Shown piece after piece: positions 322 through 17,595 of a stretch of 17,595 bases of DNA. Positions within the stretch are counted from its first letter, which is position 1. Every line of letters begins with the position of its first letter. Source of the DNA: Candidatus Zixiibacteriota bacterium (GTDB taxonomy: Bacteria > Zixibacteria > MSB-5A5 > CAIYYT01); contig JBECKX010000125.1 in the NCBI GenBank assembly GCA_040235515.1, positions 1 through 17,595 on the forward strand, written 5' to 3'. The notes below the pieces were generated by a model. That model ran no database searches. It had not been told where the DNA came from and saw only the letters and a program-made list of their open reading frames with translations. Made by a program: the position numbers and the translations under genes.

Positions 322-369
322 GCTATGATTCTGGCAAGATGTTGGTAAATGGCTAATGGGAGTGAGACA

Positions 370-1158
370 TCAGATGACTTTCACGAAGCCGCCATCGATG
401 TTAATCGCGACACCATTGATATAGGCGGCGCGTTCACTTGCGAGGAATGCCGCCAGGTCTCCCAGTTCCTCTGGTTTGGCCAATCTGCGCGCGGGGATAT
501 CAGCTTTCCATTCCGAGTAGACCCGTTTCGTCGATTTGCCGCTGCGTTTGGAGATCGCTGCAGCCAGTTCATTCAGCCGCTCGGTCGCGGTGAATCCGGG
601 GCAGAGAGCATTGGCGGTAATACCGTACTGCGCATAGTCGTTGGAAATCGACTTCACCAAACCATGCACCCCGGGGCGAACCGTCGATGAGAGCACCAGC
701 CCTTCGCTGGCCTGCAAGGCGGAGATTGATGTGACCGCGATGAGCCTCCCCCACTTCCGCTTCTTCATCGCCGGCAACGCTTCCTGACAGAGCAGGATCG
801 TCGATTTAAGATTGAGCTTGTAGGCTGCATCCCACTCATCGGCCTTGATATCAGCCACATGCTTCGAGGGCGGACCGCCGGCGTTACAGACCACGATATC
901 GGGCTCACCCAGTTGCTTACGGATCTTCACGAATGCGCCTGCTACCTGCTTCTCGCGAGTCACATCACAGACCACAGGATAGACATCGACACCATAGTGT
1001 TTTTTCAGCTCTCCCTTCGCGACATCGAGATTCGGTTTGCTGCGAGAGAGTATGGCGACTTTCGCGCCCTCCTGAGCCAGTGAGCGGGCGATCGCCTTGC
1101 CGATACCGGCGGACGCTCCGGCGACGACAGCAACTTTTCCTTCGAGTCCCAAATCCAT
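370..1158 (-). CDS. Short-chain dehydrogenase/reductase (FabG-like, atypical catalytic motif)
   Basis: 262 aa. AGASAGIG Rossmann motif, CNAGGPP, NALCPG..ATER, and C-terminal FLASERAAYING..I.IDGG. The YxxxK position reads SSTVR. Confidence 0.92.
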   Translation of the reverse strand: MDLGLEGKVAVVAGASAGIGKAIARSLAQEGAKVAILSRSKPNLDVAKGELKKHYGVDVYPVVCDVTREKQVAGAFVKIRKQLGEPDIVVCNAGGPPSKHVADIKADEWDAAYKLNLKSTILLCQEALPAMKKRKWGRLIAVTSISALQASEGLVLSSTVRPGVHGLVKSISNDYAQYGITANALCPGFTATERLNELAAAISKRSGKSTKRVYSEWKADIPARRLAKPEELGDLAAFLASERAAYINGVAINIDGGFVKVI

Positions 1159-1173
1159 CTGCTGCTTCGTTTC

Positions 1174-2532: not shown

Positions 2533-2580
2533 AGTCTCTCTCCTGAGCTCGTGGCAAATGCCGTTTTTGAATAATTGCTA

Positions 2581-2608
2581 AGCTTAGAAAACACCCCGTT
2601 TTTGTCAA
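2581..2608 (-). promoter_or_regulatory. Putative sigma70 promoter of the dipeptidase-SDR-EamA operon
   Basis: The minus strand reads TTGACA (2608-2603), 16 nt, TAAGCT (2586-2581), about 50 nt upstream of the ATG at 2532. Confidence 0.6.
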
Positions 2609-2689
2609 GCCCAATTGAACGATTAGGCGTATAGAGGAGTAGTAGTAGGTACAGGTTCCACAGATGTAGCTGAACCTCTCTTGTTTTGA

Positions 2690-2718
2690 TTGGAACAATG
2701 GAAACTGTGTGCTATCTT
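2690..2718 (+). promoter_or_regulatory. Putative sigma70 promoter (extended -10) of the peroxiredoxin gene
   Basis: TTGGAA (2690-2695), 17 nt ending in TGc, TATCTT (2713-2718). Confidence 0.45.
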
Positions 2719-2796
2719 ACGGGCTATAAGATGAACGAGCGTGAACCAGCCTGCTACAGCAAGTGCGCACCCTTGACTCAGCCGCGCGGAGGAATT

Positions 2797-3321
2797 ATGG
2801 AGCTTCAGATAGGAAAACCGGCACCAGATTTCAAACTGGTCGCCGTGATGCCGGACAAAGAACTGCAGGAAGTGCAGTTGTCAGACTACCGGGGAAAGTG
2901 GGTGGTTCTATTTTTCTACCCGCTTGACTTCTCGTTTGTCTGCCCGACCGAGATTCGAGGCTTCGACGAGAACATCTCGCGCTTTGTCGATGCCGACGCC
3001 CAGGTGCTCGGCTGTTCGGTGGACTCGCACTTCTCGCACCTGAATTTCATCGAGAAGGAATTCCGGCAGCTCAAGTTTCCGTTGCTCTCTGATATGACCA
3101 AGGAAGTGGCAAAGGCTTACAACGTGCTGCTCGATGACGGTTATGCCCTGCGGGGGACTTTCATCATCGATCCGGATGGGATTTTGAAATCGATCGTCGT
3201 GAATGACACCGCTATCGGCCGCTCGATCGATGAGACGATCCGCACGCTCCGTGCACTGCAGACCGGTCAACTGACCGGCTGTGGCTGGAATCCGGGCGAG
3301 CCGACTCTGGGAGTTCGCTAG
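2797..3321 (+). CDS. ahpC: AhpC/Prx1-type peroxiredoxin
   Basis: Motifs GKWVVLFFYPLDFSFVCPTE, SVDS.FSH, LRGTFIIDPDG, GRSIDE. The start is placed at ATG 2797 after the GGAGG RBS rather than the TTG at 2686 in the track. 174 aa. Confidence 0.92.
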   Translation: MELQIGKPAPDFKLVAVMPDKELQEVQLSDYRGKWVVLFFYPLDFSFVCPTEIRGFDENISRFVDADAQVLGCSVDSHFSHLNFIEKEFRQLKFPLLSDMTKEVAKAYNVLLDDGYALRGTFIIDPDGILKSIVVNDTAIGRSIDETIRTLRALQTGQLTGCGWNPGEPTLGVR

Positions 3322-3374
3322 ATCCATCGAGAACGTGCTGGAGTGCTGTCACGACATAGATTATCCCGAGACCT

Positions 3375-3410
3375 GCGTGGAGGACCGGTCGGTCCTCTGC
3401 GTTTTTGTTT
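3375..3410 (+). terminator. Rho-independent terminator after ahpC
   Basis: GCGTGGAGGACC-GGTC-GGTCCTCTGCGT stem (12 bp including G-U pairs) followed by TTTTGTTT. Confidence 0.8.
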
Positions 3411-3480
3411 GCAGGGGCGGCAGGCGCGACTGAATCAAGAAAAATCAGTGATTAAACTATAAGTGAAAGGTAGATACTCA

Positions 3481-3996
3481 ATGGCAGAACGCGCGAACAT
3501 GGTAACGGTTGGGGGCAAGCCGGTAACATTGATCGGCAACGAAATTGGAGTCGGTGACAAGATACCATCAGTCAAAGTCACAAGTCTCGACCAGAAGCTG
3601 GTTGATATAAAAGAGTACGAAGGCAAGGTGATTATACTTTCCACCGTACTCTCTCTCGAGACCTCCGTGTGCGATACCGAGACGCGCCGCTTCAATAAGG
3701 AAGCTGCCAGCCTCGGCGATGACATCGTAATCCTCGTCGTAAGCCCTGACCTTCCGTTTGCTCAAAAGCGCTGGTGCGGAGCAGCCGGAATCGACAAGGT
3801 CGAGGTATTCTCCGACTACCGCGAGCATGAACTGGCGAAGGCATTCGGTGTGTTAATCAAGGAGTCACAACTGCTCGCCCGCAGCATCTTCGTGATCGAC
3901 AAGCAGGGCAAGGTGCAGTATGTCGAGATCGTCAAAGAGGTCGGTACCGAACCTGACTATGAGAAGGCGATCGCCGTAGCGAAGAAACTGGTCTAG
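3481..3996 (+). CDS. tpx: Thiol peroxidase (Tpx-type atypical 2-Cys peroxiredoxin)
   Basis: Motifs VT.GG.PVTL.G, SLETSVCD..TRRFN, SPDLPFAQKRWCGAAG, LLARSIFVID, EPDYE. The ATG at 3481 follows AAAGGT and is preferred over GTG 3463. Confidence 0.9.
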   Translation: MAERANMVTVGGKPVTLIGNEIGVGDKIPSVKVTSLDQKLVDIKEYEGKVIILSTVLSLETSVCDTETRRFNKEAASLGDDIVILVVSPDLPFAQKRWCGAAGIDKVEVFSDYREHELAKAFGVLIKESQLLARSIFVIDKQGKVQYVEIVKEVGTEPDYEKAIAVAKKLV

Positions 3997-4020
3997 TTGA
4001 CCGCCTTACAGGAAAATCAG

Positions 4021-4058
4021 ACCTGCCGGACACGCGAGTGATCGGCAGGTTTTTCTTT
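4021..4058 (+). terminator. Terminator between convergent tpx and DUF456 genes (possibly bidirectional)
   Basis: ACCTGCCG-ga-CAC-gcga-GTG-at-CGGCAGGT followed by TTTTCTTT. An A-run (GAAAATC) lies upstream. Confidence 0.8.
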
Positions 4059-4063
4059 GCGGG

Positions 4064-4570
4064 CTATTCGAAAAGCACAGTGCCGGCGAAGGTGGTGATA
4101 AGCACCAGCGCTACGACGATCTGCAACACCGCGCCCACCATGAATCCCACGAAGGTTCCTATCCCCGATTTGAACGCTATCTTGAATGATTTACCCGCCA
4201 GGAGTTCGAAGGTCACCGCACCGATGAGCGGGAACAGTATCAGTCCTGCCAGACCGAAGAAAATCCCGATGATCAGGCCGATGAAGGCCCCGATAGTCCC
4301 CCACCACGACGCCCCCATCCGTTTGGCGCCGAAGACCTGGAGCAGATTCTGCAGGAGTACAATCGCGGCGACAGCGATCCCCCAATAGATGATGAAGTTG
4401 ACCGAGATATTGCTGAATCCGGTGAGGAGACCGTAGAGCAGCGCTGCGCCCCAGATGATCGGAAGGCCGGGCAGAACAGGCAGGAGTCCACCGACCAGGC
4501 CCACAAGCATAACTATCATCGTGAGACCGAATAGAATGATCTCTGACACTGTCAGACTGGCAAATTCCAA
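4064..4570 (-). CDS. DUF456 family integral membrane protein
   Basis: 168 aa, hydrophobic. Motifs GL.G.LLPVLPG, GAKRMGASWWG..GA.IG...G, G.G...GF..G. TTG start preceded by GGGGAG. Confidence 0.85.
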   Translation of the reverse strand: MEFASLTVSEIILFGLTMIVMLVGLVGGLLPVLPGLPIIWGAALLYGLLTGFSNISVNFIIYWGIAVAAIVLLQNLLQVFGAKRMGASWWGTIGAFIGLIIGIFFGLAGLILFPLIGAVTFELLAGKSFKIAFKSGIGTFVGFMVGAVLQIVVALVLITTFAGTVLFE

Positions 4571-4624
4571 AAATCAAACTCCCCGCCGGCGTACGTGCGT
4601 TTGGCGTAGTAACATCTAATGTCG

Positions 4625-6034
4625 TTACCCGCCCGCCGCTTGTCCAGTTGATATTCGCTCTCCCTCTCGACGGGAGGTCGACAAGTAGACAACTATCGAG
4701 ACGAACAGGCCGGGCAGAATCGGTTCCAGACCCCACCAGTACCCGCCCGCCGCGGTCCAGTTGGCCGAAAGCGCCCACACCAACGATACACCCCCGGAAA
4801 GCAGCATCGAGGCAATCGCTCCGGCTTCAGAAAGTCGCCGCTTGCCAAGATAGGTGCTGACAAGTGGAACCAGCAGAATCGGTGTGCCGATCGATCCGAA
4901 GTAATACCAGACCGACACGACCGACTCAAAATACATGGTGATTATCGCCGTGAGAATTCCGCCAAGCACCAACGCCCATTTGGTGAAGTAGTTGGCGCGC
5001 GCTTCCCCTCTCTTCCCCCAATCGGCGATGATATCCTTCCCCAGCGTGGATGCCGCAATAAAGAGGTACGAGTCCGCAGTTGAGATCACCGTTGCCAGCA
5101 TCGCAACCGCAAACAATCCCGACAGGCCGACCGGCAGAACGGCGTCCCCCAATAATGGGTAGGCCGCAATCGGATTGATATCTGCAGGCAGTATCGCTCT
5201 GGCATAGAGGCCGCAAGTGGTGGTCATCAAATCGAAGAGAAACCAGCAGGCTATCGAGACGAGGATCCCCTGCTTCGCAACACGCTCGCTCTTGGCGGCA
5301 TAGGCCACCTGGAAGAACGACGGCTCCACCAGAGTCGCGAGCGCAATCACGTACCAGACTGCTATGTACCAAAAAGAATTGCCGCCGCTCCAGGTGAAGT
5401 TCTCGGCAGGCACATGGGCTTTCAGAAAATCAAGTCCCCCGTAGCCGATCAGCAACGCCGCCGTGATTATGACAAAGCCGAGGTACATGAATGTGAAATG
5501 CCAGAGATCTGCACGCACAAGCGATTTAAACCCGCCCAGAAAGGCGTAAGCCCCCACCAACAGCGTGCCCACGACGATCCCCGCCCACTGCGGCCAACCG
5601 AAAAAGGTGCTACCCAGAACGCCGAGGATCAGAACGTAGGCCACCGGCAGCGTCCAGAGAAAGACTACGATCGCACCCAGTCCCGCCGCGTGACGACCGT
5701 AAACCTGGTTCAACCTGTCGGGGATCGTGATGAATTCCGTTCGTCGCGCCTTCGAAGCCAGCAGCCAGGCGAACAGCAGCGCCGCGATGTAGTACGGCAC
5801 GCCGAAAACAAACCAGTTGGATATTCCGAAGCGGTAAGAATACTCTCCCACGCCCAGAATCCCGCCATACCAGTTCGAGACCAGTGTAGCCACGAGCGCG
5901 GGCAACGTGAGTTTGCGCCCGCCGATTAAGTACTCAACGGTTGTCGAGACACTCTCCCGTCGCCGCAGCAGTCCAAAGACAACTATACCGGCGAGGTAAA
6001 GCCCAACTACCAGCAGATCGATCGTCGAGAGCAA
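4625..6034 (-). CDS. Sodium:solute symporter (SSS) family protein, probable thiamine/precursor importer
   Basis: 469 aa, many TM segments. Motifs EY.IGGRKL, ATLV..WYGG..G.GE, TIPDRL...YG, Y..LGG.KS....D, AT.ISTADS. The TTG start directly follows the TAG of the upstream receptor. Confidence 0.88.
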   Translation of the reverse strand: MLSTIDLLVVGLYLAGIVVFGLLRRRESVSTTVEYLIGGRKLTLPALVATLVSNWYGGILGVGEYSYRFGISNWFVFGVPYYIAALLFAWLLASKARRTEFITIPDRLNQVYGRHAAGLGAIVVFLWTLPVAYVLILGVLGSTFFGWPQWAGIVVGTLLVGAYAFLGGFKSLVRADLWHFTFMYLGFVIITAALLIGYGGLDFLKAHVPAENFTWSGGNSFWYIAVWYVIALATLVEPSFFQVAYAAKSERVAKQGILVSIACWFLFDLMTTTCGLYARAILPADINPIAAYPLLGDAVLPVGLSGLFAVAMLATVISTADSYLFIAASTLGKDIIADWGKRGEARANYFTKWALVLGGILTAIITMYFESVVSVWYYFGSIGTPILLVPLVSTYLGKRRLSEAGAIASMLLSGGVSLVWALSANWTAAGGYWWGLEPILPGLFVSIVVYLSTSRREGERISTGQAAGG

Positions 6035-8554
6035 CTAGCGCAACCGCAGTGAGAGTTCAGTGAAGATCGAGCGTTCCGCCGCGGGCGTGTACTCTGCCCA
6101 GAAGATATCGGCGGCATCCCGGAAGCGTACGGCACCGCCGTAGCCGAAATACTCATACTTCTCGTTGAAGATGTTATTGAGATTGATGCTCAGTTGCAAC
6201 GTTCCCAGATTGCTGAGCGATCCGAGGTTGAGCTTCCCGGTCACCGACGAAATGAAGTAGGGATCGATGGCCAACTCCTCAACATTGGCGTTTTCGACAT
6301 AGATCTTCCCGATGAAGCGGCCCCGCAGCGCCAGTTGGATCAAATCGGAATTGTATTCCGCGACCGCATTTCCGATGTACTCCGGAAAACCTGTGATGGT
6401 CTTGTCGGCATAGCTGAAAGTCTCGCTGCCGACGTAACCATAGTCGTCGGGATTGTCGTATACCGTCTCCACCACCTCGAATTCCTTGATTCGATTGTAG
6501 TTGTAGGAGACGTTACCGGAAAGCCGGATGCGGCTGCTCAGCTTGCGCGCCGCACTCAATTCGATGCCTGCGTGCACCGAACGATCAACATTGGTCGTTA
6601 TGGGCAGACCCAGGTCACTCAAACCACCGAACGGTACGATCTCATTGCGAAATTCCATCCAGAAGAGATTCGCGCCGTAGGTCGCATCGCTGTCGCGGTA
6701 CTCCGCCCCCAATTCGAAATCGTGCACCCGCTCGGCCTTCATGGTCGGATCACCGAAAATGACGGTTGAATCGTTTTGGGCCGCGAAACGAATGTCATCG
6801 ATCTCCAGTGACGGCAACGCATACGGGTCGTTGGCATCGTAAATCTCGTAATCCGCCGGCGCGCGTGAAGAGAGTGAGTAGCTGAGAATCAGGTTGGTGT
6901 TCCTGGCGACCCGGTAGTTCATCCCGACGCGCGGCGAGAGGAACGCCCAGTCAACATCGAAGTTGTAACCGGAGTATGGCCCCATCTCCACTTGATCGAA
7001 GTTGTAGGTCTGGTAGCGGAACTGCAGATTACCGTGGAACTGCAACCTGTCATTTAATCGATAGTTTTTGTTTACGTATGCTGCAGCAAAGTACTTCTCA
7101 CCGAAGTATTGATAGTACTTGTGTTGCGGGTCGATCTGATTGGTTACGCCCTCGGCCCAGGTGACCTGGCCCCAATGATCAGACTCGAAGTAGTAGAATT
7201 GTCCGCCGATATTGAGTTCGCCGCTTTCCTGCTGCAAGTCGAGGCGTGGGTTCCAACCCCACTGGTTCTTGCTGACATGCTGCTGCTTGACAATGTCGCC
7301 GGAGGTAATCACGCTGACCACTTCGCCTTCCGCATTTGTGATCTCAGTCGGCGGGATACTGAAATCATAGAATTGTTGGTCAGAGTCATACTGCTCGTAG
7401 TAACCGCTGCCATGAATGTGAAACAACGTATTGTCGAGTGAGAGGTTCTCCGCCAGCCTGATAACGTTGTGAACTTCATAGTGCGGCTGATTGAAGTTGT
7501 CTGTTTCGTTGGCGTAGGTCAGCGGGTTGAAGCGGCGATCCTCGTCGATCTGTTCTCTTGAGATTCCGTAATAGGCCAGGTGCATCTGCATCGGGCCACC
7601 ATAGATGTTCACCGTTGTGGTCATATTCGGATCGAGGCGTGCCAGGGAGAGGTAGTATGACCAGCCGTCATACCATGAATCCTTGCGGTAGCCATCCGAA
7701 AGCTGTCGGGAGTAGCGCCCGGAGAAATTCCAGCGACCGTCGATCAGCCCGGAATTGTACTCCAGCGATTGCTTCTCCATATCGCCCACCCATTCGCCAT
7801 CACTCCAGAACCCGCCGTAGCCGGTTGACAGCGCGATCGATCTCTCCTGCTCGATTCCGGCGGAGACGATATTGACCGATCCCCCGAACGAGGCATCTCC
7901 ATAGAGGGAGTTACCGATGCCGCGCTGCACCTGGATATCCTTAACATTCGAAGCGAAATCGGGAATATCGACGAAGTAGGTTGCCTGGTCTTCGGGATCG
8001 TTGAGCGGCACTCCATTGATGTAGGTAGATACCCGCTTGTCATCAAATCCCCGGATGCGGATGTAACTATATCCCAGCCCACCACCAGCATCGGCGTATG
8101 CATAGAGATTGGGGGTAGTCTCCAGCAACAGCGGGAACTCACCGATCGAATAGTCACGTTCGATCTCTTGACCGGTGAAGTCACTGAATGCCACCGGAGA
8201 GACGCCCGCCTCAGCACGGGACGCCGTAACCGTGATCCCCTGGCCGGGGTAAACGCTCGGCTGTAGCTCGACGCTGAGATTGCTCTGCTCGAACGCCTTT
8301 ACCATGCGCGGCTGAAAACCGACGTGCGTGAATGTCAAGTCGTGCCCGCCCGGACCTTCCGCGTCGAGTTGAAAGTTTCCCTGCTCGTCGGTGACGGCAC
8401 CGATTTTGCCACCATCGATAGAGATGTTCACACCCGGAATCGGCCGACCGGCGGGATCAACTACTTTACCCCGCAGCGATGCCGCCTGCAAGCAAGCCGT
8501 TGCAATGAGTACCGAGGCAACTAAGATTGAAAAGATTGTACGACAGCGTATCAT
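6035..8554 (-). CDS. TonB-dependent outer membrane receptor, probable thiamine uptake
   Basis: 839 aa. Signal peptide, N-terminal carboxypeptidase-regulatory-like domain (GKVVD..G.PIPGVNI...TD..GNF), plug (IRIRGFD...YINGVPLNDPE...VQRG...SLYG...GGSVN), then beta-barrel strands. Lies downstream of a TPP riboswitch. GAGG RBS. Confidence 0.92.
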   Translation of the reverse strand: MIRCRTIFSILVASVLIATACLQAASLRGKVVDPAGRPIPGVNISIDGGKIGAVTDEQGNFQLDAEGPGGHDLTFTHVGFQPRMVKAFEQSNLSVELQPSVYPGQGITVTASRAEAGVSPVAFSDFTGQEIERDYSIGEFPLLLETTPNLYAYADAGGGLGYSYIRIRGFDDKRVSTYINGVPLNDPEDQATYFVDIPDFASNVKDIQVQRGIGNSLYGDASFGGSVNIVSAGIEQERSIALSTGYGGFWSDGEWVGDMEKQSLEYNSGLIDGRWNFSGRYSRQLSDGYRKDSWYDGWSYYLSLARLDPNMTTTVNIYGGPMQMHLAYYGISREQIDEDRRFNPLTYANETDNFNQPHYEVHNVIRLAENLSLDNTLFHIHGSGYYEQYDSDQQFYDFSIPPTEITNAEGEVVSVITSGDIVKQQHVSKNQWGWNPRLDLQQESGELNIGGQFYYFESDHWGQVTWAEGVTNQIDPQHKYYQYFGEKYFAAAYVNKNYRLNDRLQFHGNLQFRYQTYNFDQVEMGPYSGYNFDVDWAFLSPRVGMNYRVARNTNLILSYSLSSRAPADYEIYDANDPYALPSLEIDDIRFAAQNDSTVIFGDPTMKAERVHDFELGAEYRDSDATYGANLFWMEFRNEIVPFGGLSDLGLPITTNVDRSVHAGIELSAARKLSSRIRLSGNVSYNYNRIKEFEVVETVYDNPDDYGYVGSETFSYADKTITGFPEYIGNAVAEYNSDLIQLALRGRFIGKIYVENANVEELAIDPYFISSVTGKLNLGSLSNLGTLQLSINLNNIFNEKYEYFGYGGAVRFRDAADIFWAEYTPAAERSIFTELSLRLR

Positions 8555-8614
8555 CAGATAACCTCACTTATGACTCGAGGCAGTTAGCCACCGCTAACCA
8601 CACTCTATTCCGCC

Positions 8615-8664
8615 AACAAAAACGCCGTTCCTGACTCGCGCAATGGAAGCGACCCGAAACGGCA
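8615..8664 (-). terminator. Intrinsic terminator in the riboswitch expression platform
   Basis: RNA UGCCGUUUC (8664-8656) pairs with GGAACGGCG (8631-8623), with an inner UCGC/GCGA helix, followed by UUUUUGUU (8622-8615). Confidence 0.65.
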
Positions 8665-8766
8665 ACGTGAGGTCCCTGAGATTCACTGATGGGAGTCTTC
8701 AGGAACTGATTCCGACACGGCACCCGACAACAGCGGTCAAGGTGCGTGTCGCGGCAAGTTTGACGC

Positions 8767-8857
8767 TGCCGTTTTCCTCCGCCGGTATTATCCGGGTCAG
8801 GTTCGAGGGTTGTTATCTCAGGCAGCCGGGTCAAGCCGGCCACCACTCCCAACGGCA
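8767..8857 (-). promoter_or_regulatory. TPP riboswitch (THI element) aptamer
   Basis: Minus strand: TGCCGTT GGGAGT GGTGGCCGG CTTGAC CCGGCTGCC TGAGA TAACAACCC TCGAACCTGA CCCGGATAATACCGG CGGAGGAA AACGGCA. It has P1 TGCCGTT/AACGGCA, a 9-bp P3, the conserved CTGAGA, GAACCTGA and TAAT loop, and CG.AGG. Confidence 0.95.
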
Positions 8858-8874
8858 TATGTTTCTTCTCGACA

Positions 8875-8902
8875 AAAATACGAGTCCGTCTCCGCGGCGC
8901 AA
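8875..8902 (-). promoter_or_regulatory. Putative promoter of the TPP riboswitch operon
   Basis: Minus strand TTGCGC (8902-8897), 16 nt, TATTTT (8880-8875). This would start transcription about 10 nt before P1. Confidence 0.45.
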
Positions 8903-8995
8903 TAAGATTTCTCAATCTTTTGTTGCGGCTATTCGCGCCGCAGTTCAACTGGACCTTTAGTTCCCCCTTAGCAGGCCGATTGTGAAAGGAATAAC

Positions 8996-9023
8996 TTGCG
9001 TTTTAGGCCTATTTTGATAGAAT
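8996..9023 (+). promoter_or_regulatory. Putative sigma70 promoter of the DUF1015-serA-serC operon
   Basis: TTGCGT (8996-9001), 16 nt ending in TGa, TAGAAT (9018-9023), with an A-rich stretch upstream. Confidence 0.6.
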
Positions 9024-9097
9024 AAGGCGAGTTTACAGGAGGTGACGGATTACCCGCGTAATCCCGTGTTGAGACTACATTTCGGTGGGTAGAGATC

Positions 9098-10345
9098 ATG
9101 GTTAAGGTTAAGGCTTTTAGGGGGTTGCGACCAAAAGCTAGTTTGGTTGAGCGGGTGGCGGCTCCACCCTATGACACCCTGTCATCCGAGGAAGCCAGGG
9201 AGATGGCGTCTGCAAATGAGCACTCCTTCCTGCGCGTTACAAAACCTGAAATCACCTTCGATCCGTCGGAAGACCTTTCCAAAGTCGACCTCTATCGGAG
9301 AGCCAAAGAAAACTTGCAGGCTCTGATCGACAACGAATCGATGATCCGTGATGAAAAAAATTCTATCTACATCTATCGCCTCAATTGGCGTGATGTCGAA
9401 CAAACCGGCTACATGCTCCTTTCCGCCGTCGATGACTACCTGAAGGGCGCCATCAAACGGCACGAGTTCACGCGCCCCGATAAGGAATCAGATCGCACGC
9501 GGCTCAGCGATGTCCTCAATGCTCAGCCGGGACCAGTTTTTCTATTCTATCCTCCGAACAACAACCTCGATAAGTTGCTCGAATCGACTACAGGGGGCGA
9601 ACCGAAGTTCGACTTCGTTGCAGCTGATGTTCGCCACCGAATCTGGATCATCGACGATCCCAAATTGGTCGCAGATATAGTTGCCGGATTTGCCGGGATC
9701 AAGGCCACCTATATCGCCGATGGTCACCATCGCTGCGCTGCAGCAGCCAATGTCTGCAAGGAACGTCGCGGCGCCAATCCGGGCTTCAGCGGGCAGGAAC
9801 CGTTCAACTTCTTCCTGACCGTTATCTTCCCCGAGAACCAGTTGCGCATTCTGCCATACAATCGCGTCGTCACGGACCTGAATGGTTTGAGCGTCGCTGA
9901 CTTCGTCGGCAAGGTGAGCGAGCGATTTGAGGTAACACCCTCCCCTGACAACAAACCGGTCGACCCCGAGGCTGAGGAAGCGATCGGCATGTATATTGAC
10001 GGCAAGTGGTACAGGCTGGTGCCGGGACCGAACTCGTACAATCAGCACGATCCGATCGAGTCCCTGCATATCAGCATACTCTCAAAGAACCTGCTCGAGC
10101 CACTGCTTGGCATCAGCAAACCCCGCACCGACAAACGAATCGATTTCGTCGGTGGAATCAGGGGAACGCGGGAATTGGTCAAGCTGGTCGACTCGGGAAG
10201 ATTTGCAGTGGCATTTGCGGTACCTGCTGTCACGCTTAAGGCTTTGCGCGATGTGGCTGACAAGGATGGCATCATGCCACCCAAGTCGACCTGGTTCGAG
10301 CCGAAGCTCAGGAGCGGCCTGGTCGTAAACCTGTTGAACGAGTGA
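9098..10345 (+). CDS. DUF1015 family protein (ParB/Srx-like IADGHHR motif)
   Basis: 415 aa. Motifs VKAFRGLRP, VAAPPYD, IKRHEFTRPDKE.DR, YIADGHHR.AAA, ILPYNRVV, RTDKRIDFVGGIRG, MPPKSTWFEPKLRSGL. Confidence 0.92.
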   Translation: MVKVKAFRGLRPKASLVERVAAPPYDTLSSEEAREMASANEHSFLRVTKPEITFDPSEDLSKVDLYRRAKENLQALIDNESMIRDEKNSIYIYRLNWRDVEQTGYMLLSAVDDYLKGAIKRHEFTRPDKESDRTRLSDVLNAQPGPVFLFYPPNNNLDKLLESTTGGEPKFDFVAADVRHRIWIIDDPKLVADIVAGFAGIKATYIADGHHRCAAAANVCKERRGANPGFSGQEPFNFFLTVIFPENQLRILPYNRVVTDLNGLSVADFVGKVSERFEVTPSPDNKPVDPEAEEAIGMYIDGKWYRLVPGPNSYNQHDPIESLHISILSKNLLEPLLGISKPRTDKRIDFVGGIRGTRELVKLVDSGRFAVAFAVPAVTLKALRDVADKDGIMPPKSTWFEPKLRSGLVVNLLNE

Positions 10346-10457
10346 CCATTTGGGCAAAGGCAATTACAACGACTTGAATGTATCAGAGTAGCTTCGGTCA
10401 TCACGACCGTTCCAGATAGTGGCAATTTCAGAACTCATGATTTGAGGTATTAGCGAA

Positions 10458-11351
10458 ATGAAGATATTGATTTCAGATGCATTCGATCCCTCGCTGCCGG
10501 ATGAACTCCGCAAGTATGGCGAAGTCACCGACAACAAGGATGAACTGCCGACCGCGGATGTCGTGCTTGTTCGCTCGAAGACTACGTGCAACAAGGAATA
10601 CATCGACAAGGGCAAGAAGCTCAAGCTGATCATTCGTGGTGGAGTAGGCCTTGACAATATTGATGTCGAGTATGCCCGGTCTAAAGGAATCGAAGTCCAC
10701 AACACGGCTGAGGCTTCCAGTATCGCTGTAGCGGAGCTGGCCTTCGCCCTGATGATCGCGGTGCCGAATCACCTGGTTCAGGCTGACACTTCGATGAAGG
10801 AAGGCAAATGGCTGAAGAAGGAATTGAAGCGCACTGAGCTGATGGGCAAGACGCTCGGCGTACTCGGCTGTGGGAAGATCGGGACTGAGATGGCAAAGCG
10901 CGCCGTCGCATTCGGTATGAACGTCGTCGGCTACGATCCTTCGGTCGACATCCACGATCAAATCAGCATCAAGGTCTCGATGGAAGAGATGCTGCCACTT
11001 TCCGACTATATCACGATTCACACTCCGCTTACCGAGAAAACCCTCGGCTTCATCAACAAGAAGACGATCGCCCTGATGAAGGATGGAGTGGTGATAATCA
11101 ACACGGGACGCGGCAAGTGTGTGATTGAGGAGGACGTGGCCGAGGCATTGAAGTCTGGCAAGATCGGTTTCTACTGCAACGATGTCTGGTATTCCGATCC
11201 GCCGAAGGACTCACCGCTGATCGGTGCACCCAATACCCTGTTGACGCCACATATTGGTGCATCGACGGAAGAAAATTTGCTGCGCATTGGCAAGGTGGTC
11301 AATCGCATCATCGGCAAGTTCCAGGGTACCTATAACAAGAGAATTTCCTAA
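10458..11351 (+). CDS. serA: D-3-phosphoglycerate dehydrogenase (short form, no ACT domain) / D-2-hydroxyacid dehydrogenase
   Basis: 297 aa. Motifs VRSKT, RGGVGLDNID, AVAELA, ELMGKTLGVLGCGKIG, H.PLT, NTGRG, TPHIGASTEE. Adjacent to serC. Confidence 0.8.
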   Translation: MKILISDAFDPSLPDELRKYGEVTDNKDELPTADVVLVRSKTTCNKEYIDKGKKLKLIIRGGVGLDNIDVEYARSKGIEVHNTAEASSIAVAELAFALMIAVPNHLVQADTSMKEGKWLKKELKRTELMGKTLGVLGCGKIGTEMAKRAVAFGMNVVGYDPSVDIHDQISIKVSMEEMLPLSDYITIHTPLTEKTLGFINKKTIALMKDGVVIINTGRGKCVIEEDVAEALKSGKIGFYCNDVWYSDPPKDSPLIGAPNTLLTPHIGASTEENLLRIGKVVNRIIGKFQGTYNKRIS

Positions 11352-11385
11352 CTGAGCGCCTGAGAATGGCATAAGGGACATTATT

Positions 11386-12468
11386 ATGGGACGCGTACAT
11401 AATTTCAATCCGGGCCCCTCCGCAATACCGCTTCCGGCACTGCAAACTGCGCAGAAGGAGCTGTTGGACTACAATGGGCTTGGACTATCCGTGCTCGAGA
11501 TGAGCCACCGCAGCAAGGATTTCGATGCGATCCTTGCTGAGACCAAGAAATCGCTCACGAATCTGCTCCAGATCCCGGAAAATTACAGCATCATCTTCCT
11601 GGGCGGTGGGGCATCGCTGCAGTTTGCGATGCTGCCAATGAACTTCCTCGCGCAGGACCAATGCGCGGACTACATCAACACCGGCGCGTGGTCGGCTAAA
11701 GCGATCTCGGAAGCTAAACTCTTCGGTAAGGTCAACATCGCAGTGACGTCAGAGGAAGCCAAATACACCTTCATTCCGTCACCGGAGCAACTCAAGCTTG
11801 ACCCGAGCGCGCAGTATGTCCACCTGACTTCGAACAATACGATCTTCGGCACGCAATGGCATTACTACCCCGATACCGGTAGTGTACCGCTGGTAGTCGA
11901 CATGTCGTCCGATATCCTCTCACGCAGTTTCGATATCAAGAAGATTGCGATGATCTATGCCGGAGCACAGAAGAACATCGGCCCGGCTGGTGTTACCCTG
12001 GTGATCATTCGGAATGACATGCTCGAAAAGGTCAAGGCTGGAATCCCGAAGATTCTCAATTACAAAACGCATACCGATAAGGATTCCACTTACAACACGC
12101 CGCCGGTATTCAATGTCTACATGATCCATCTCTTCCTCAAGTGGATCGAGTCGATTGGCGGACTTGCCGCCATGGAGAAGATCAATCGAGAGAAGAAGGA
12201 TATCATCTATAGCGTAATCGATGGGTCGGATGGCTTCTACAAGGGCACCGTGCGCGAGGACAGCCGCTCCTGGATGAACGCCACGCTGCGGCTTTCATCT
12301 GAGGAACTCGAAGCCACTTTTGTGACCGACGCCAAAGCCAATGGCTTCATCGGACTCAAGGGCCATCGCTCCGTCGGTGGTATTCGCGTCTCGATGTACA
12401 ACGGTGTGCCGCTCGAGGCCGTGGAGAAGCTGGCTGAATTCATGAAGGAATTCAGGAAGAAGCACTAG
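11386..12468 (+). CDS. serC: Phosphoserine aminotransferase
   Basis: 360 aa. Motifs NFNPGP, SVLEMSHRS, GGASLQF, TSNNTIFG, DMSSD, YAGAQKNIGPAG (PLP lysine), YNTPPVF, KGHRSVGG.R.S.YN. Confidence 0.97.
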   Translation: MGRVHNFNPGPSAIPLPALQTAQKELLDYNGLGLSVLEMSHRSKDFDAILAETKKSLTNLLQIPENYSIIFLGGGASLQFAMLPMNFLAQDQCADYINTGAWSAKAISEAKLFGKVNIAVTSEEAKYTFIPSPEQLKLDPSAQYVHLTSNNTIFGTQWHYYPDTGSVPLVVDMSSDILSRSFDIKKIAMIYAGAQKNIGPAGVTLVIIRNDMLEKVKAGIPKILNYKTHTDKDSTYNTPPVFNVYMIHLFLKWIESIGGLAAMEKINREKKDIIYSVIDGSDGFYKGTVREDSRSWMNATLRLSSEELEATFVTDAKANGFIGLKGHRSVGGIRVSMYNGVPLEAVEKLAEFMKEFRKKH

Positions 12469-12510
12469 GCCGGCGCCTGCAGTCTCAATCCGCCCGCTGC
12501 GTAAACAACC

Positions 12511-12553
12511 AATGCGTCAGGTCGCAAAGCTCTGCGCGTGCGCCTGACGCATT
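12511..12553. other. Strong inverted repeat after serC (hairpin without a U-tract)
   Basis: AATGCGTCAGG-t-CGCA ... TGCG-CCTGACGCATT: 11 perfect bp plus 4 bp. Confidence 0.6.
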
Positions 12554-12580
12554 ACAAGTTCACTATCCCCGATTTTCCGC

Positions 12581-12609
12581 TCGACAAAACCGAGATTCGG
12601 CCGTAATCT
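12581..12609 (+). promoter_or_regulatory. Putative promoter of the secreted dockerin-like protein gene
   Basis: TCGACA (12581-12586), 17 nt, TAATCT (12604-12609), about 40 nt before ATG 12652. Confidence 0.45.
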
Positions 12610-12651
12610 AAACAGTAAACTTTCGTCTTTACTTCACCGAACCGTTTAAGC

Positions 12652-13509
12652 ATGTGCACACTACGAACAGCGATCGCGATCATCTTGCTGACTGCCCTGC
12701 CCACCTTTGCGCAAGGCTCGATTTACGGTACCGTCAGCCTCTCCGGCGGCGGTGCGCCGGCGGAATCGGCACTACGATTCTTCGGGTACATCGATGGAAC
12801 CGATGACGAGGTTCGACTGGCGATCTGCGACGGCTCCGGCTACGACGGCATCAACTGGTGGGATGATTTTCAGAACTATGGGGATGAGGCGCCGGGACTC
12901 CCCTACCGCTACCTCTTCTTTGTCTCGAACACGGGCGAAGGCGCCGAGTTGAGCGCTGCGATTCCGAACAATTCGTTTCAGCAGGAGAACATTACATTGA
13001 CCGCAGCAGACTACCCGGAATCACCGGTAGTGCTCGCAACTGCTGAATCGGACGCGGTTCGCCTCAGTTGGAACGAAGTCACAGGCTGTAGCTACCATGT
13101 GTACCGACGACCCAACGGTGTGGCTACTTCATTCTTCCGAATTGATGACGCCACGGGTAATCTCGGACAGCCGGGCCTCAGTTCCCCGGGCTACCTCGAT
13201 TCCGATGTTAGCGCGATCGACCAGTACGAATACCTGGTTATTGCTCGCCGCGCCGACGGTACCTTCTCTCCCCCCTCTGATGCAGTCGCGGCAGTCGATG
13301 GAATCTGCGGGGATGTTGATGCGTCGGGTCTGGTGATCATTTCAGACGCGGTCTACATGATCAACTACATCTTTGCCGCCGGTCCGGCGCCGCTCGACCC
13401 GTTTGGTGGAGATGTCGACTGCAGCGGTGATCTCAATATCACGGACGCTGTCTATGTCATCAACTATCTGTTTGCGGGTGGACCTGCGCCCTGCGCGGGG
13501 TGTGAGTAA
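12652..13509 (+). CDS. Secreted protein with a beta-sandwich/FN3-like domain and a C-terminal dockerin-like twin repeat
   Basis: Signal peptide (…LLTALPTFA|QG). FN3-like motifs VRLSW, SYHVYRR, YLDSDV, YEYLV.A, FS.PS. Two C-terminal repeats GDVD.SG...I.DAVY.INY.FA.GPAP. Confidence 0.8.
   Translation: MCTLRTAIAIILLTALPTFAQGSIYGTVSLSGGGAPAESALRFFGYIDGTDDEVRLAICDGSGYDGINWWDDFQNYGDEAPGLPYRYLFFVSNTGEGAELSAAIPNNSFQQENITLTAADYPESPVVLATAESDAVRLSWNEVTGCSYHVYRRPNGVATSFFRIDDATGNLGQPGLSSPGYLDSDVSAIDQYEYLVIARRADGTFSPPSDAVAAVDGICGDVDASGLVIISDAVYMINYIFAAGPAPLDPFGGDVDCSGDLNITDAVYVINYLFAGGPAPCAGCE
13306..13506 (+). repeat. Twin dockerin-like (EF-hand-like Ca-binding) repeat
   Basis: CGDVDASGLVIISDAVYMINYIFAAGPAP / GGDVDCSGDLNITDAVYVINYLFAGGPAPC. 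The duplication is also visible in DNA (GATGTTGAT...GACGCGGTCTACATGATCAACTAC vs GATGTCGAC...GACGCTGTCTATGTCATCAACTAT). Confidence 0.85.
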
Positions 13510-13529
13510 AGAGCTAGTCGAGGGCTCGC

Positions 13530-14159
13530 TTAAATCGTCTCCGGTCGATTGGGGAGCTCATTGATGTCGTCAGGATCGATCGGGAGTTTCGCCTTGAGTT
13601 CGTCGCTGATCTCCGCAATCGCATTGACAACACCCTCAGAATGATCTCCACCCTTCATACCAGCCACGATCGTCTCCAGCGGCTTGTTCCAGTAGTCGTC
13701 CTCAACGGCTGCGGCAACCGCCGAATCAACCACGATTGCTGCTTGTCGCTCCGCGAGTGAGAGCAGAATCAGGACACCGGTCTTGTTGGCGGTTCGCTGA
13801 ATCGTGTCGAAGGCCCGGCTCGCGCGCTTCCAGACCAGCTTGCGCTTTCTGCTCGGCGATTGAAATAGAAACATCCAGAGGAGATAACCAATCACGAATC
13901 CGATGATTCCCCACAGCGTCGCCTGCTGGAAATCATAGAAGATACCCCAGTCGGAGGTCCTCGTCAAATAGAGTGATGCAACCATAGCGAGAAGAGCCAC
14001 CACAGCGCCCGCAACAAGTCGCTCCGTCAACCAGCCATGACAGCGCTCTGCAATTCTGACGACGATCTCAGCGCTGGTGCTCGTTTCGGCGCGACCAATG
14101 GCCGCAGTGATCGCATCAAAGTCCGCCTCCGAGAAATATCGTTTCACCAAATCAGGCAT
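13530..14159 (-). CDS. TPM domain membrane protein
   Basis: Motifs I..AI..AE..TSAEI.V, two TM helices, T..KTGVLI.LS..ER.A.IV.D, D.NELPN. The ATG at 14159 follows AGGA and is preferred over the overlapping TTG at 14186. Confidence 0.85.
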   Translation of the reverse strand: MPDLVKRYFSEADFDAITAAIGRAETSTSAEIVVRIAERCHGWLTERLVAGAVVALLAMVASLYLTRTSDWGIFYDFQQATLWGIIGFVIGYLLWMFLFQSPSRKRKLVWKRASRAFDTIQRTANKTGVLILLSLAERQAAIVVDSAVAAAVEDDYWNKPLETIVAGMKGGDHSEGVVNAIAEISDELKAKLPIDPDDINELPNRPETI

Positions 14160-14179
14160 ACCTGGTCCTGTCGCTTTCT

Positions 14180-14944
14180 TCACCAACCGCCACTGGCGCC
14201 TCCACCACCCGATGAACCACCACTGAACCCACCGAAGCTGCTTCCACTGCTGAAACTACTTCCCCCGCCGCTGCTCCAGCCACCGCTGCTGAGGAAGCTG
14301 CTCCAGGTGACCGGCTTGTCTTTCGATGCGAGCTTCGCCTGCGTGTACGCGGAGCGGATCGCCAGCGCGATACTCCCGAACACCATCAGGAATACGAACA
14401 TCGAAATCATCCAGGGGATATACCAGGGGAACGTATCATCGGCGAGCGGCGGTGGGCTATACTCGCCACCGATAGCCGCAATGATACCGTCCAGCGCGAC
14501 GTTGATTCCGGCTCCCCAGCGCTTGCCCCGAAACTCGACAGCCATATCGGACGTGCTGCCGACAATCAAACCGCTTTCGATATCGGTCAGCTCCGGCTCG
14601 AGTCCATAACCCACTTCAAGTCGTATCTTGCGGTCAGCCAGCGCGATCAGCAGCAGAACACCATTGTCGCGCTCCTTCCCTCCGATCCCCCATTTGTTGA
14701 ATACTCGATTGGCGAAATCCTCAAGATTATCCCCTTCAAGGGATGGAATGATCAAGATGCCGATCTCGTTGGCGGTGGAATCTCTGTAGTCAATGATCCG
14801 CTGGATGATTTCCTGCTTCTCCTGCCCATCAAGCAGACCGGCAAGGTCCATGAGCGGGGAATCATACGCCGGCACGTCGAGCGCACAGGCGTGCACGACC
14901 GGCAACAGCAGTAATGCAATGATCAGTAGAATTCTGCAGCGCAT
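14180..14944 (-). CDS. TPM domain protein (YgcG family) with Gly/Ser-rich tail
   Basis: Signal peptide; motifs D.A.LL, SLEG..LE.FA...F.KWGIG....DNGVLLLIA..DRK.R.EVGYGLE..LTD; one TM helix; tail FSGGSSGGGGASGGW. Confidence 0.92.
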   Translation of the reverse strand: MRCRILLIIALLLLPVVHACALDVPAYDSPLMDLAGLLDGQEKQEIIQRIIDYRDSTANEIGILIIPSLEGDNLEDFANRVFNKWGIGGKERDNGVLLLIALADRKIRLEVGYGLEPELTDIESGLIVGSTSDMAVEFRGKRWGAGINVALDGIIAAIGGEYSPPPLADDTFPWYIPWMISMFVFLMVFGSIALAIRSAYTQAKLASKDKPVTWSSFLSSGGWSSGGGSSFSSGSSFGGFSGGSSGGGGASGGW

Positions 14945-14950
14945 GATAAC

Positions 14951-15568
14951 TTAGTTCGATTCGAATGCTTCCTTCACGCTCGGAGCTGTTTCCGCTCCCG
15001 CGGTCGCCTTGAAGTACTCCTTCTCATACGGATACCCGAAAAACGACCCGGCAATCAGGGCCGCCACGCCGCGCTGTCGATACGTATTGTACTCGCGAAC
15101 GGTTTCGTTGAAGAGCCTGCGCTCCTGGGCAATCCTGTTCTCAGTGCCTTCCAGTTGCGTCATCAGATTCTGGTAGGTCTGTTCTCCCTTGAAATCGGGG
15201 TAAGCCTCCACGACGACATTGATGTAGGAATTCAGCCGCTGAGATAGCTGCGTCGCAAGTGAATCAAGCAGCGCCGGGTTTTGCTGGTTGAGCGCCTGCT
15301 GCGCTGTTCCCTGCAAGTCGATCACACGTTGCCGCAATTCGGTCACCTCTACCAGCGTGCTCTTCTGTCGTTTCATGAAATTGTCTACCGCAGCAACGAG
15401 ATTCGGTACCAGATCAAGTCGACGCTGATAGACGTTCTCGACCTGCGACCACTTCTCATCCACAGCCTGTGAGCGGTCTATCAACCCACCACGGGCGCTC
15501 CAGATCCACATACCGAGGCCAATGGCCACGATCAGTATCACCGCTATGACGATCCCTGCCACTTTCAT
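14951..15568 (-). CDS. lemA: LemA family protein
   Basis: N-terminal TM helix; motifs WSQVENVYQRRLDLVPNLV, VVVEAYPD.K, L..QLEGTENRIA.ERR.FN..V..YN, YF.A..GAE.AP.V. ATG 15568 lies 7 nt after GGAG (the track gives TTG 15574). Confidence 0.95.
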   Translation of the reverse strand: MKVAGIVIAVILIVAIGLGMWIWSARGGLIDRSQAVDEKWSQVENVYQRRLDLVPNLVAAVDNFMKRQKSTLVEVTELRQRVIDLQGTAQQALNQQNPALLDSLATQLSQRLNSYINVVVEAYPDFKGEQTYQNLMTQLEGTENRIAQERRLFNETVREYNTYRQRGVAALIAGSFFGYPYEKEYFKATAGAETAPSVKEAFESN

Positions 15569-15647
15569 TTCCAAACTCCGCTTTCAGATGTTCTGTAGCT
15601 ATGTCGACATTTGACTCTTCGCATTTCCACCCTCACTAACGGCAGTA

Positions 15648-15676
15648 AACATAAGTGCATTCACCACCGGTAACAA
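15648..15676 (-). promoter_or_regulatory. Putative promoter of lemA-TPM-TPM
   Basis: Minus strand TTGTTA (15676-15671), 17 nt, TATGTT (15653-15648). Confidence 0.4.
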
Positions 15677-15725
15677 GCGGGAACTGGTCTAGAGATTGGG
15701 GTATTTGCGGTGAGGAACGAGGGGA

Positions 15726-17468
15726 TTATCGCTTCAATTTGGCCTGCAGTACCGCATTTTCCGGATCAGCGGCGAGCGCCTTGCTCCAGGCGTCACGCGC
15801 CTCCTCGGTGTGACCCAGGGCGGCATGGATATCGCCGAGATGTTCGGTGACGACCGGGTCGTCGGGCACAAGTGTCACTGCCTTGCGAATCTGTGCGAGC
15901 GCCTCTGAATAGCGCCCCAGCTTGTAGAGCACCCAGGCGTAACTATCCAGGTAAGCCCCGTTGTCCGGTTCGGCTCCCACTGCCTTCTCGATCATGACCA
16001 ATGCTTCATCAAGCCTCTCCCCCTTGTCGGCAAGCATATAGCCCAGGTAGTTCAGAGTTGGATGGTGGTGGGGATTCAATGACAGGAGCAGCTCAAACGC
16101 CTCCACTGCCTTGTCGAACTCGCCCAATTTCTCATACTCGGCACCTGTTTGGAACAGCGCTCTGACGGTGTCGCCGCCATTTTCCACGACTTGCCGCAAA
16201 ACGACAATTGCCGAATCCGACATCTGCTTCTCGGAAAGGAGTTGCGCCATAAAGAGCCGAATGTTGTTCTGATCATCGCGTACCTGGCCAAGCGCCGTCT
16301 CAAGCACTTTCATCGCGCTGTCCGGCATCTCCTGCCTTTGCAGAATGAATGCCAGATTGGTCCAACCATCCGGCACGGTCGAGTCGGCAGCGATCAGATG
16401 ATCGAAATAGACTCGCGCGGAGTCGTAATTCTCCTGCTGGATTGCATAGCGCCCCAGATAGAAGAGGGCATAACGGTTCTCCGCATCGACCGACAGTATC
16501 TTGTCGAAGAAACGTTGTGCGACATCCGGCATATTCTCTCGCATCAGCACGATGGCGATTCGCTGCAGCACATCAATATCAAGTTCATCATCCTTCAGAC
16601 TCAATATCCGATCCGCGACAATCCGCACCGAATCTTTGTTGTCTTCGATATTGTAGCTTTCGAGCAGTTGCGCGAGCAGGAGCGGATCTCTCGGATGCAG
16701 AGTGATCCCGCGACTCAATGCCTGCTTGGCTGCCTCGTGGTGCCCCGCCTGGTGGAGATAGAGCGCGTATTGCCCATACTTCTGCGGATTATTCTGATCG
16801 AGATCGAGTGAGGATTTCATGAACGCGGCTGCCGAATCATACATCTGCGAGCCGGCGTACATTTCGGCGATCCGTTCAAACAGGTCTGCGTTCATCGAGT
16901 ATTGCGCCGCCCGGCGGAAGTAGCTGCCGGCGCGATTGATATCATTTGCCTGCGCGGCATAGAGTCCGAGGTTGTAATTGAAATTCACATCCGTCGAGTC
17001 CTGCTCCCATCCCTGCTGATAGGCGGCCTCGGCCTTTTCATGTTGCCCCAGTTCTCGGAAGGCATCACCCATCAAGCCGTAGACCTTGCTGTCTTTTCCC
17101 TTGATCGGCAGCAGGGTTTCGAGCGCCTGTGAAGGGCGATTGAGATTCAGGTAGAGTACTCCCAGCGAGAGCCGGATATCGTACGAAGTCGGCTCATACG
17201 AGAGCGCCTGCTCATATTCTCGCACCGCTGCGTCAAACGCGTGCTCCTGTTCATAGATCGTGGCGTTTACGAAATGGTCGTAAGCCGCTTCGTTGATCTC
17301 GGGGGCGGGCGCCGGAGGCGGCGCAGGAACCTTACCCTTCGCCGGCGTGCTCATGACATCATTCTGCTGCGACTGTGAAGCACAGCCGGTAAAGATGAGC
17401 ATCGTCAGGCTCAGGCAGAGCAGAGCCGCGAATATCCTCAGGTTGAATTGACGCATTGAGTATCGCAA
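15726..17468 (-). CDS. Tetratricopeptide-repeat lipoprotein
   Basis: Lipobox-like LIFTG|C, Pro-rich linker PAKGKVPAPPPAPAP, many TPR units, C-terminal LNYLGYMLAD...EPDNGAYLDS.AWVLYKLG...HLGD. The start could be ATG 17456. Confidence 0.9.
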   Translation of the reverse strand: MRYSMRQFNLRIFAALLCLSLTMLIFTGCASQSQQNDVMSTPAKGKVPAPPPAPAPEINEAAYDHFVNATIYEQEHAFDAAVREYEQALSYEPTSYDIRLSLGVLYLNLNRPSQALETLLPIKGKDSKVYGLMGDAFRELGQHEKAEAAYQQGWEQDSTDVNFNYNLGLYAAQANDINRAGSYFRRAAQYSMNADLFERIAEMYAGSQMYDSAAAFMKSSLDLDQNNPQKYGQYALYLHQAGHHEAAKQALSRGITLHPRDPLLLAQLLESYNIEDNKDSVRIVADRILSLKDDELDIDVLQRIAIVLMRENMPDVAQRFFDKILSVDAENRYALFYLGRYAIQQENYDSARVYFDHLIAADSTVPDGWTNLAFILQRQEMPDSAMKVLETALGQVRDDQNNIRLFMAQLLSEKQMSDSAIVVLRQVVENGGDTVRALFQTGAEYEKLGEFDKAVEAFELLLSLNPHHHPTLNYLGYMLADKGERLDEALVMIEKAVGAEPDNGAYLDSYAWVLYKLGRYSEALAQIRKAVTLVPDDPVVTEHLGDIHAALGHTEEARDAWSKALAADPENAVLQAKLKR

Positions 17469-17470
17469 AA

Positions 17471-17595
17471 CTATTTCGTTACCTTGCCTTTCACCTTGTA
17501 GAAACCACGCTTTCCGACCTTGAGGAGGTACTCACCCGCAACGGCGAGCTTGATCGTGTGGTCCTCTACTTTATCGCCGTCGATCGAAACACCAC
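17471..17595 (-). CDS. tyrS: Tyrosyl-tRNA synthetase C-terminal S4 domain (3' end only)
   Basis: Manual translation GVSIDGDKVEDHTIKLAVAGEYLLKVGKRGFYKVKGKVTK* with stop at 17473-17471. GV.IDG.K and L.VGKR.F are typical of the TyrRS C-terminus. Confidence 0.82.
   Translation of the reverse strand, partial: GVSIDGDKVEDHTIKLAVAGEYLLKVGKRGFYKVKGKVTK

Follow-up and report, generated by a model that had tools for sequence, protein, structure and literature searches.

A SerBK (DUF1015) gene leading a predicted serBK-serA-serC operon with a Rex-type operator in a Candidatus Zixiibacteriota genome

Which enzyme could release serine from phosphoserine in a bacterium that carries serA and serC side by side, with a DUF1015 gene in the slot of serB? 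This question was raised by a 17,595-nt stretch of DNA from a Candidatus Zixiibacteriota bacterium (assembly GCA_040235515.1, contig JBECKX010000125.1, positions 1 to 17,595; the window hereafter), in which three co-oriented genes, DUF1015, serA and serC, occupied 9098-12468. An original prediction, made from the sequence alone, assigned the missing dephosphorylation step to the DUF1015 protein, offered a serine kinase as the alternative, and suspected that the association was already known. It was indeed known, since the family had been named SerBK and linked to serA and serC in the main text of Price et al. (PMC13759103; bioRxiv 10.1101/2024.10.14.618325), and a phosphate-removing role of DUF1015 had first been proposed by Hofmann et al. 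2018. The predicted assignment was favoured by the position in the SerB slot, the SerK/SbnI fold and the lack of serB here and in relatives, but was not new. Family, operon, fold and serB replacement are already published, and the Rex-type operator described below is one addition. Based on family, context and tree, it is near certain that the gene is an ordinary SerBK family member; it is the first gene of a predicted serBK-serA-serC operon.

The serBK-serA-serC unit and the absence of serB

The DUF1015 gene (9098-10345, + strand), the sole DUF1015 copy in the genome, encoded a protein of 415 aa which matched PF06245 over profile positions 1-322 of 325 (E 4.7e-99; 331.8 bits, cut-off 25.8) and had no HAD match in Pfam or NCBIfam. 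It was followed after 112 nt by a short serA-type open reading frame (ORF) of 297 aa without C-terminal regulatory domains (10458-11351, + strand), and after another 34 nt by serC (11386-12468, + strand), encoding a phosphoserine aminotransferase of 360 aa which exceeded the cut-offs of both SerC models, TIGR01364 (499 bits, cut-off 443.6) and NF003764. The serA-type ORF was a D-2-hydroxyacid dehydrogenase with the phosphoglycerate dehydrogenase (PGDH) model TIGR01327 as its top NCBIfam match; its 284 bits fell below the full-length cut-off of 454 because only positions 35-298 of the 525 in the profile were covered. The name serA thus rests on the best model match and the gene context, and the one other PF02826 protein of the genome had a far lower PGDH score. 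No HAD gene was seen inside the three-gene unit, and ORFs and family matches agreed with the predicted gene set. The three-gene predicted operon is real, intact and well conserved.

The genome (100% complete, 0.16% contamination) was then the place to look for a conventional phosphatase. The best serB match reached 29.9 bits against a cut-off of 144 in the profile search, whose control passed the cut-off in 8 of 14 genomes, and neither a true SerB nor a SerB-like protein gave any tblastn match at 1e-6. No thrH match was over cut-off, and no PspA-type phosphatase was found, the sole histidine-phosphatase protein of the genome being GpmA. The proposed search for SerB, ThrH and iPSP thus came out as expected.

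The same pattern was found across the phylum in a sample of 151 genomes, which included the source genome and in which kin were not independent. DUF1015 matches were present in 93 genomes, 79 of them close (E 1e-60 or better, a threshold set in this analysis) and 14 divergent at 25-30% identity. A serC of the operon type occurred in 77 of the 151 genomes, all with a close DUF1015, and in 76 of these 77 it followed DUF1015 at a distance of 927-1178 nt on the same strand and contig, a spacing that leaves room for one short serA; in the two close-form genomes without serC, the operon was truncated inside serA by the contig end. Only one genome had a serB over cut-off, on a 1.7-kb contig and without any DUF1015 match, and none of the 79 close-DUF1015 genomes had one, in line with the anticipated anti-correlation. 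Long SerA was present in nine genomes, all nine of them with the divergent form (14 genomes) and none with the close form (79 genomes). When either this serC or a long SerA was taken as marker, DUF1015 was found in 86 of 86 genomes with a marker, and a marker in 0 of 58 genomes without a DUF1015 match. The gene of the window is a clear instance of SerBK in one more phylum, and there the serBK-serA-serC cassette is the main form of the pathway.

Across phyla, gene context was counted at the 80 top-ranking loci out of 599 confirmed, many of them cut short: on the same strand within 4 kb, serA was present at 33, serC at 24 and both at 21, with a different aminotransferase at 10. The neighbouring SerA ORFs were at most 346 aa long in 31 of 33 cases, one being cut by a contig end. 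serB was over cut-off in neither of the two scored genomes of named homolog loci. The closest named homolog (67% identity) came from Ca. Zixiibacteriota, and among rows chosen by their likeness to the query, identity was 43-48% to homologs of five Clostridium spp. and 47% to that of a Bacteroides sp. A quick tree built from 48 proteins placed the query with the serA-linked homologs of Clostridium and Bacteroides (SH-aLRT 100; clade relatives 44-53% identical) and 15 divergent DUF1015 proteins apart from this clade. GapMind assigns high confidence from 40% identity upwards to an experimentally supported member, and the named homologs served here as proxies for such members.

Published work, as given in the main text of Price et al. 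(PMC13759103), agreed with a serB replacement. A high-confidence serB was present in only 3 of 50 genomes, CBO1128 rescued an E. coli serB::kan strain in minimal medium, and BT1151 had a fitness of -2.2 to -2.6 with serine as nitrogen source, which backed the serine-kinase alternative of the original prediction. Extracts of C. difficile are also reported to form serine from 3-phosphoglycerate.

Some observations were made on the divergent DUF1015 subfamily itself (25-30% identity), which keeps the catalytic motifs. The gene was located just downstream of selD at all 8 loci drawn from the 14 genomes of the phylum with this form, twice with cysteine synthase. A general link to selD was dropped, since selD occurred at 10 of 80 metagenome loci, mostly those of the closest relatives, with many loci short. 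An aminotransferase-like neighbour was seen at 15 of the 80 metagenome loci and purine-pathway-like neighbours at others, named by eye. Among the nine long-SerA genomes, only G005 had a serB-like HAD (E 1e-15), adjoining its serA, and the divergent DUF1015 may replace SerB in the other eight.

Fold and conserved residues

A structure model of the DUF1015 protein was built from 118 sequences, with a pLDDT (predicted local distance difference test) of 93.6. The nine best Foldseek matches of the model (E 1.4e-8 to 9.8e-5) all belonged to SerK, to SbnI or to 1vk1, a SerK look-alike from Pyrococcus, and a second, independent structure search gave SerK (Z 12.5) and SbnI (Z 11.1), followed by sulfiredoxin and ParB-like chains at Z 5.5 or less; both kinases were thus the top structural matches, as the predicted resemblance required, and SbnI is also the top match of SerBK in the main text of Price et al. 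(PMC13759103). Against SerK 5x0b, 226 residues were aligned with a root mean square deviation of 5.8 and a TM-score of 0.54 on the target, residues 97-415 corresponding to SerK residues 8-240. A ParB/sulfiredoxin catalytic domain and a SerK-type second domain were both present in the model. Residues 1 to about 95, which contain an invariant PPYD motif, stayed unaligned to SerK. Identity in the structural alignments to SerK and SbnI was 10-16%, and searches of PDB sequences, by phmmer with the DUF1015 protein and by two profiles, gave no significant match. As judged from the model, the DUF1015 family would work like SerK/SbnI but is a separate family, with sequence homology undetected.

Three invariant elements were located on the + strand. 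His122-Glu123 (9461-9466) was kept in 118 of 118 close homologs and also in the divergent subfamily, and Glu123 would be the counterpart of SerK Glu30 according to the aligned ranges of the model. The phosphate/metal-binding motif IADGHHR (9713-9733, exactly where it had been predicted) contains Asp208-Arg212, likewise invariant in 118 of 118 homologs; matching offsets suggest that D208 corresponds to the motif Asp of SerK, which we take to be D69. Profile positions 208-219 aligned to residues 64-75 of the SerK-like chain 1vk1, with an E of 0.61 that is non-significant alone. GxxR is described as the P motif of the ParB fold in PMC12704722. The third element, MPPKSTWFEPK (10274-10306), is a C-terminal motif inside the SerK-aligned region.

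A homolog from a genome of the same genus (G043, L120:2019-3026) was 336 aa long and covered only residues 1-299, with serA directly after it. The invariant C-terminal motif was absent from it, by deletion or assembly error, and the copies in G143 and G125 were in pieces too.

Rex-type operator, direction and phosphate acceptor

A predicted Rex-type operator, an 18-bp imperfect palindrome with three mismatches to the consensus used, was located at 8980-8997 in front of the unit. All 10 of the 10 family loci, among them this one, had the 18-bp element conserved 104-118 nt before the start codon, with a variable flank upstream of it. A matrix derived from 25 sites on other contigs gave the site of the window 12.1 bits; 84 positions of the genome scored as high, so the site taken alone is a weak one. 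Another 40 upstream regions were chosen by hand among the other 78 close-DUF1015 genomes, two of them from family members; a site at p <=0.05 was present in 21, where about 2 were expected, and three of the sites were perfect palindromes. The operator touches the -35 box of a candidate sigma-70 promoter (8996-9023, + strand), read by eye as a weak -35 (8996-9001), a 16-nt spacer and an extended -10 (9015-9023). The single promoter that had been predicted was thus readable by eye, but was not among the 6 sites of a consensus scan (3.7 expected).

A reader for such sites is encoded as well. A Rex domain was present in 21 of 21 family genomes, with one homolog over the NCBIfam Rex cut-offs, and a perfect palindrome was located about 40 nt before rex in the source genome. 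In this genome 25 sites departed from the consensus at one position at most; each of three shuffled genomes had a single such site. Of 16 downstream genes scanned, 13 could be named, and this predicted Rex regulon included Rex, citrate synthase, aconitase and malic enzyme, besides two glutamate-type dehydrogenases, glutamine synthetase and electron-transfer proteins. In this phylum the predicted regulon thus takes in genes of the tricarboxylic acid (TCA) cycle and of nitrogen assimilation. A CRP/FNR-type factor has a near-identical motif and is an alternative reader of the site.

From these sequence features, Rex probably ties transcription of the operon to NADH/NAD+. If Rex acts as a repressor, high NADH would switch the operon on, as would fit a flow from serine to 3-phosphoglycerate that consumes NADH. 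The weight of this argument is modest because the regulon holds NADH-producing enzymes and Rex can also activate, according to the Caldicellulosiruptor bescii Rex literature, where a Rex-controlled serine-use step is also cited for Thermotogales. The conserved operator is still a clue to the direction in which SerBK runs, and together with a SerA lacking the feedback domain it gives a hint that the operon also runs serine to 3-phosphoglycerate.

These lines led to a proposed mechanism, in which SerBK, with its SerK/SbnI (ParB/sulfiredoxin) fold, would act as a Mg-dependent phosphotransferase and complete the phosphorylated serine pathway in either direction. With serine in excess, SerBK would phosphorylate it at the expense of ATP or ADP, then SerC and SerA would convert phosphoserine into 3-phosphoglycerate with consumption of NADH. 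When serine is short, SerBK would free it and pass the phosphate to a low-energy acceptor, either water or inorganic phosphate (Pi) to give pyrophosphate (PPi), but not to ADP or AMP. This bidirectional mechanism with a low-energy acceptor is considered moderately probable; for the protein of the window, the activity, phosphate acceptor, Rex binding and flux direction are all predictions.

The acceptor is a real biochemical question. Price et al. (PMC13759103) proposed a two-way kinase and, in the same main text, called the reverse reaction unfavourable (K 4e-4) and in need of biochemistry. An energy-conserving enzyme, that is a kinase run backwards to make serine and recover ATP or ADP, would suit the kinase fold and is the simplest reading those authors offered. 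With their K and an assumed ADP/ATP of 0.1-1, we estimated that the reverse kinase costs +19.4 kJ/mol and leaves a serine/phosphoserine ratio of 4e-5 to 4e-4, too low for growth; they raise the same thermodynamic objection. Energy conservation through ADP or AMP, one form of the original prediction, is therefore highly improbable. Little would be gained with AMP as acceptor as long as adenylate kinase works close to equilibrium. Since serB is complemented and the reverse kinase is unfavourable, a lower-energy acceptor is implied. Computed with textbook energies, hydrolysis of phosphoserine is downhill by about 11 kJ/mol, and transfer to Pi costs about 5-11 kJ/mol, which is workable when Pi exceeds PPi, with a serine/phosphoserine ratio of about 0.1-14 at Pi/PPi of 10-100. 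By analogy with HprK/P, a tentative and rather doubtful version is a serine kinase/phosphoserine phosphorylase (phosphoserine + Pi giving serine + PPi) which under Rex would flip to NADH-consuming serine assimilation. If true, it would keep some energy for the membrane pyrophosphatase encoded in the genome and resolve the paradox left by the SerBK paper, in whose main text the word pyrophosphate appears once, in another context. Both membrane and soluble pyrophosphatases are encoded, so pyrophosphatase content does not discriminate.

Other explanations were weighed as well. A plain phosphoserine phosphatase, evolved from the kinase fold with kinase activity lost, would agree with the complementation, with the downhill hydrolysis and with one DUF1015 protein that apparently did not bind nucleoside triphosphates (NTPs); it would leave the BT1151 defect on serine unexplained, the nucleotide-binding motif is invariant, and the binding screen, run at 25 uM protein without ADP as a ligand, could miss binding (SerK Km(ADP) 2.4 mM), which makes this explanation improbable. 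Another alternative is a one-way serine kinase in a Rex-controlled route from serine (glycine via GlyA) to 3-phosphoglycerate/phosphoserine, with serine coming from glycine, peptides or an unrecognised phosphatase. Such an enzyme agrees with the fold, with the Rex-type operator, with SerA lacking a feedback domain here and in the short neighbouring SerA ORFs, with the presence of glyA, with the lack of an SdaA-type serine dehydratase in the genome (PLP-type dehydratases were not sought), and with the proposal that clusters of serK, serA and an aminotransferase gene serve to assimilate serine in Desulfurococcales (PMC5120207). It is nonetheless thought unlikely in view of the rescue of serB::kan in minimal medium, the serine formed from 3-phosphoglycerate in C. 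difficile extracts, and the almost complete lack of serB wherever the DUF1015 gene occurs. Least probable is a non-catalytic regulator or scaffold of SerA/SerC, which would sense serine or nucleotides and stand in for the missing regulatory domain of SerA: the gene travels with short SerA and is never found with long SerA in the close-form genomes, and some ParB-fold proteins are scaffolds, but the homolog alone rescues E. coli serB, and the acidic and DGHHR residues are invariant.

Several observations weigh against the bidirectional mechanism and the serB replacement behind it. Four proteins of the genome have no assigned function, a TIGR01490-like and an MtnX-like one of the HAD-IB type and a SuhB-like and a HisN-like one of the IMPase family, and an IMPase-like SerB exists in other organisms. 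glyA is present, so serine could be made without the DUF1015 gene. A sub-cut-off serB-like HAD was present in 8 of the 79 close-DUF1015 genomes, the one examined of the eight being a glucosyl-phosphoglycerate synthase fusion. No significant operator site was found in 19 of the 40 upstream regions, and a regulon that holds citrate synthase, aconitase and glutamine synthetase means that the Rex site does not simply mark an NADH sink. According to the main text of Price et al. (PMC13759103), no biochemistry is published for any SerBK member, and literature searches on SerBK and DUF1015 gave no other paper on the enzyme chemistry. In a ParB-fold binding screen (PMC12704722), a DUF1015 protein is listed as purified; it is apparently missing from the 11 proteins named as NTP binders, and the screen had no pocket mutant of it. 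That protein perhaps did not bind ATP, CTP, GTP or UTP; the argument is weak because the table lists 29 proteins against 28 in the text and because of the high Km of SerK for ADP.

Neighbouring features and known systems

After serC, a strong hairpin without a T run (12511-12553, + strand) was given by fold computation and could be the 3' end of the transcript; it was absent from the terminator-scan listing. Directly after serC among the genes, a secreted-looking protein of 285 aa with a C-terminal dockerin-like domain was encoded at 12652-13509 (+), then LemA and two TPM-domain genes, a common module, at 13530-15574 (-). On the other side, a thiamine pyrophosphate (TPP) riboswitch over the gathering score (8757-8860, -) was located ahead of a TonB-dependent receptor (6035-8554, -) and a sodium:solute symporter (4625-6034, -), which together are likely a thiamine uptake unit, divergent from and outside the serine operon. 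Two tandem peroxiredoxin-type genes, AhpC/TSA and redoxin, were present at 2686-3996 (+).

Among known systems, the published SerBK genes (CDIF630erm_01132, CBO1128 and BT1151) are the nearest, with the same Pfam family and length class, a position adjoining serA/serC, no serB, and the SbnI/SerK fold. They differ in gene order, which is serC-serA-serBK in the Clostridium and Bacteroidota loci and serBK-serA-serC here, and neither Zixibacteria nor Rex is mentioned in the main text of the SerBK paper, whereas a Rex-type operator is present here. SbnI is the free serine kinase of staphyloferrin B synthesis (PDB 5ujd, 5uje, 6nr6); it has the fold in common (Z 11.1, E 6e-6) at 10-12% identity, but belongs to a siderophore context instead of a serA-serC one. 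SerK, the ADP-dependent free serine kinase of Thermococcus kodakarensis (5x0b family, PMC5120207), shares the fold, the DG.HR-type motif and a proposed role from serine to 3-phosphoglycerate. It is about 240 aa long against 415 aa here, at 13-16% identity and without the roughly 95 extra N-terminal residues; according to that paper, SerK uses neither ATP nor PPi, and a SerB homolog is separately present in its host. HprK/P (PMC2937029) uses one active site both for phosphorylation, with ATP or PPi as donor, and for removal of the phosphate from phosphoserine by Pi, which yields PPi; it is a mechanistic precedent only, with an unrelated fold and a protein substrate. For regulation, the closest likeness is the serC-serA-Athe_2124 operon of C. 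bescii, which is Rex-controlled, with a conserved Rex site and gel-shift binding, and likewise has a third gene (PMC6391272, PMC8579813); there the third gene is labelled hypothetical, the phylum is another, and SerC is of another type than here.

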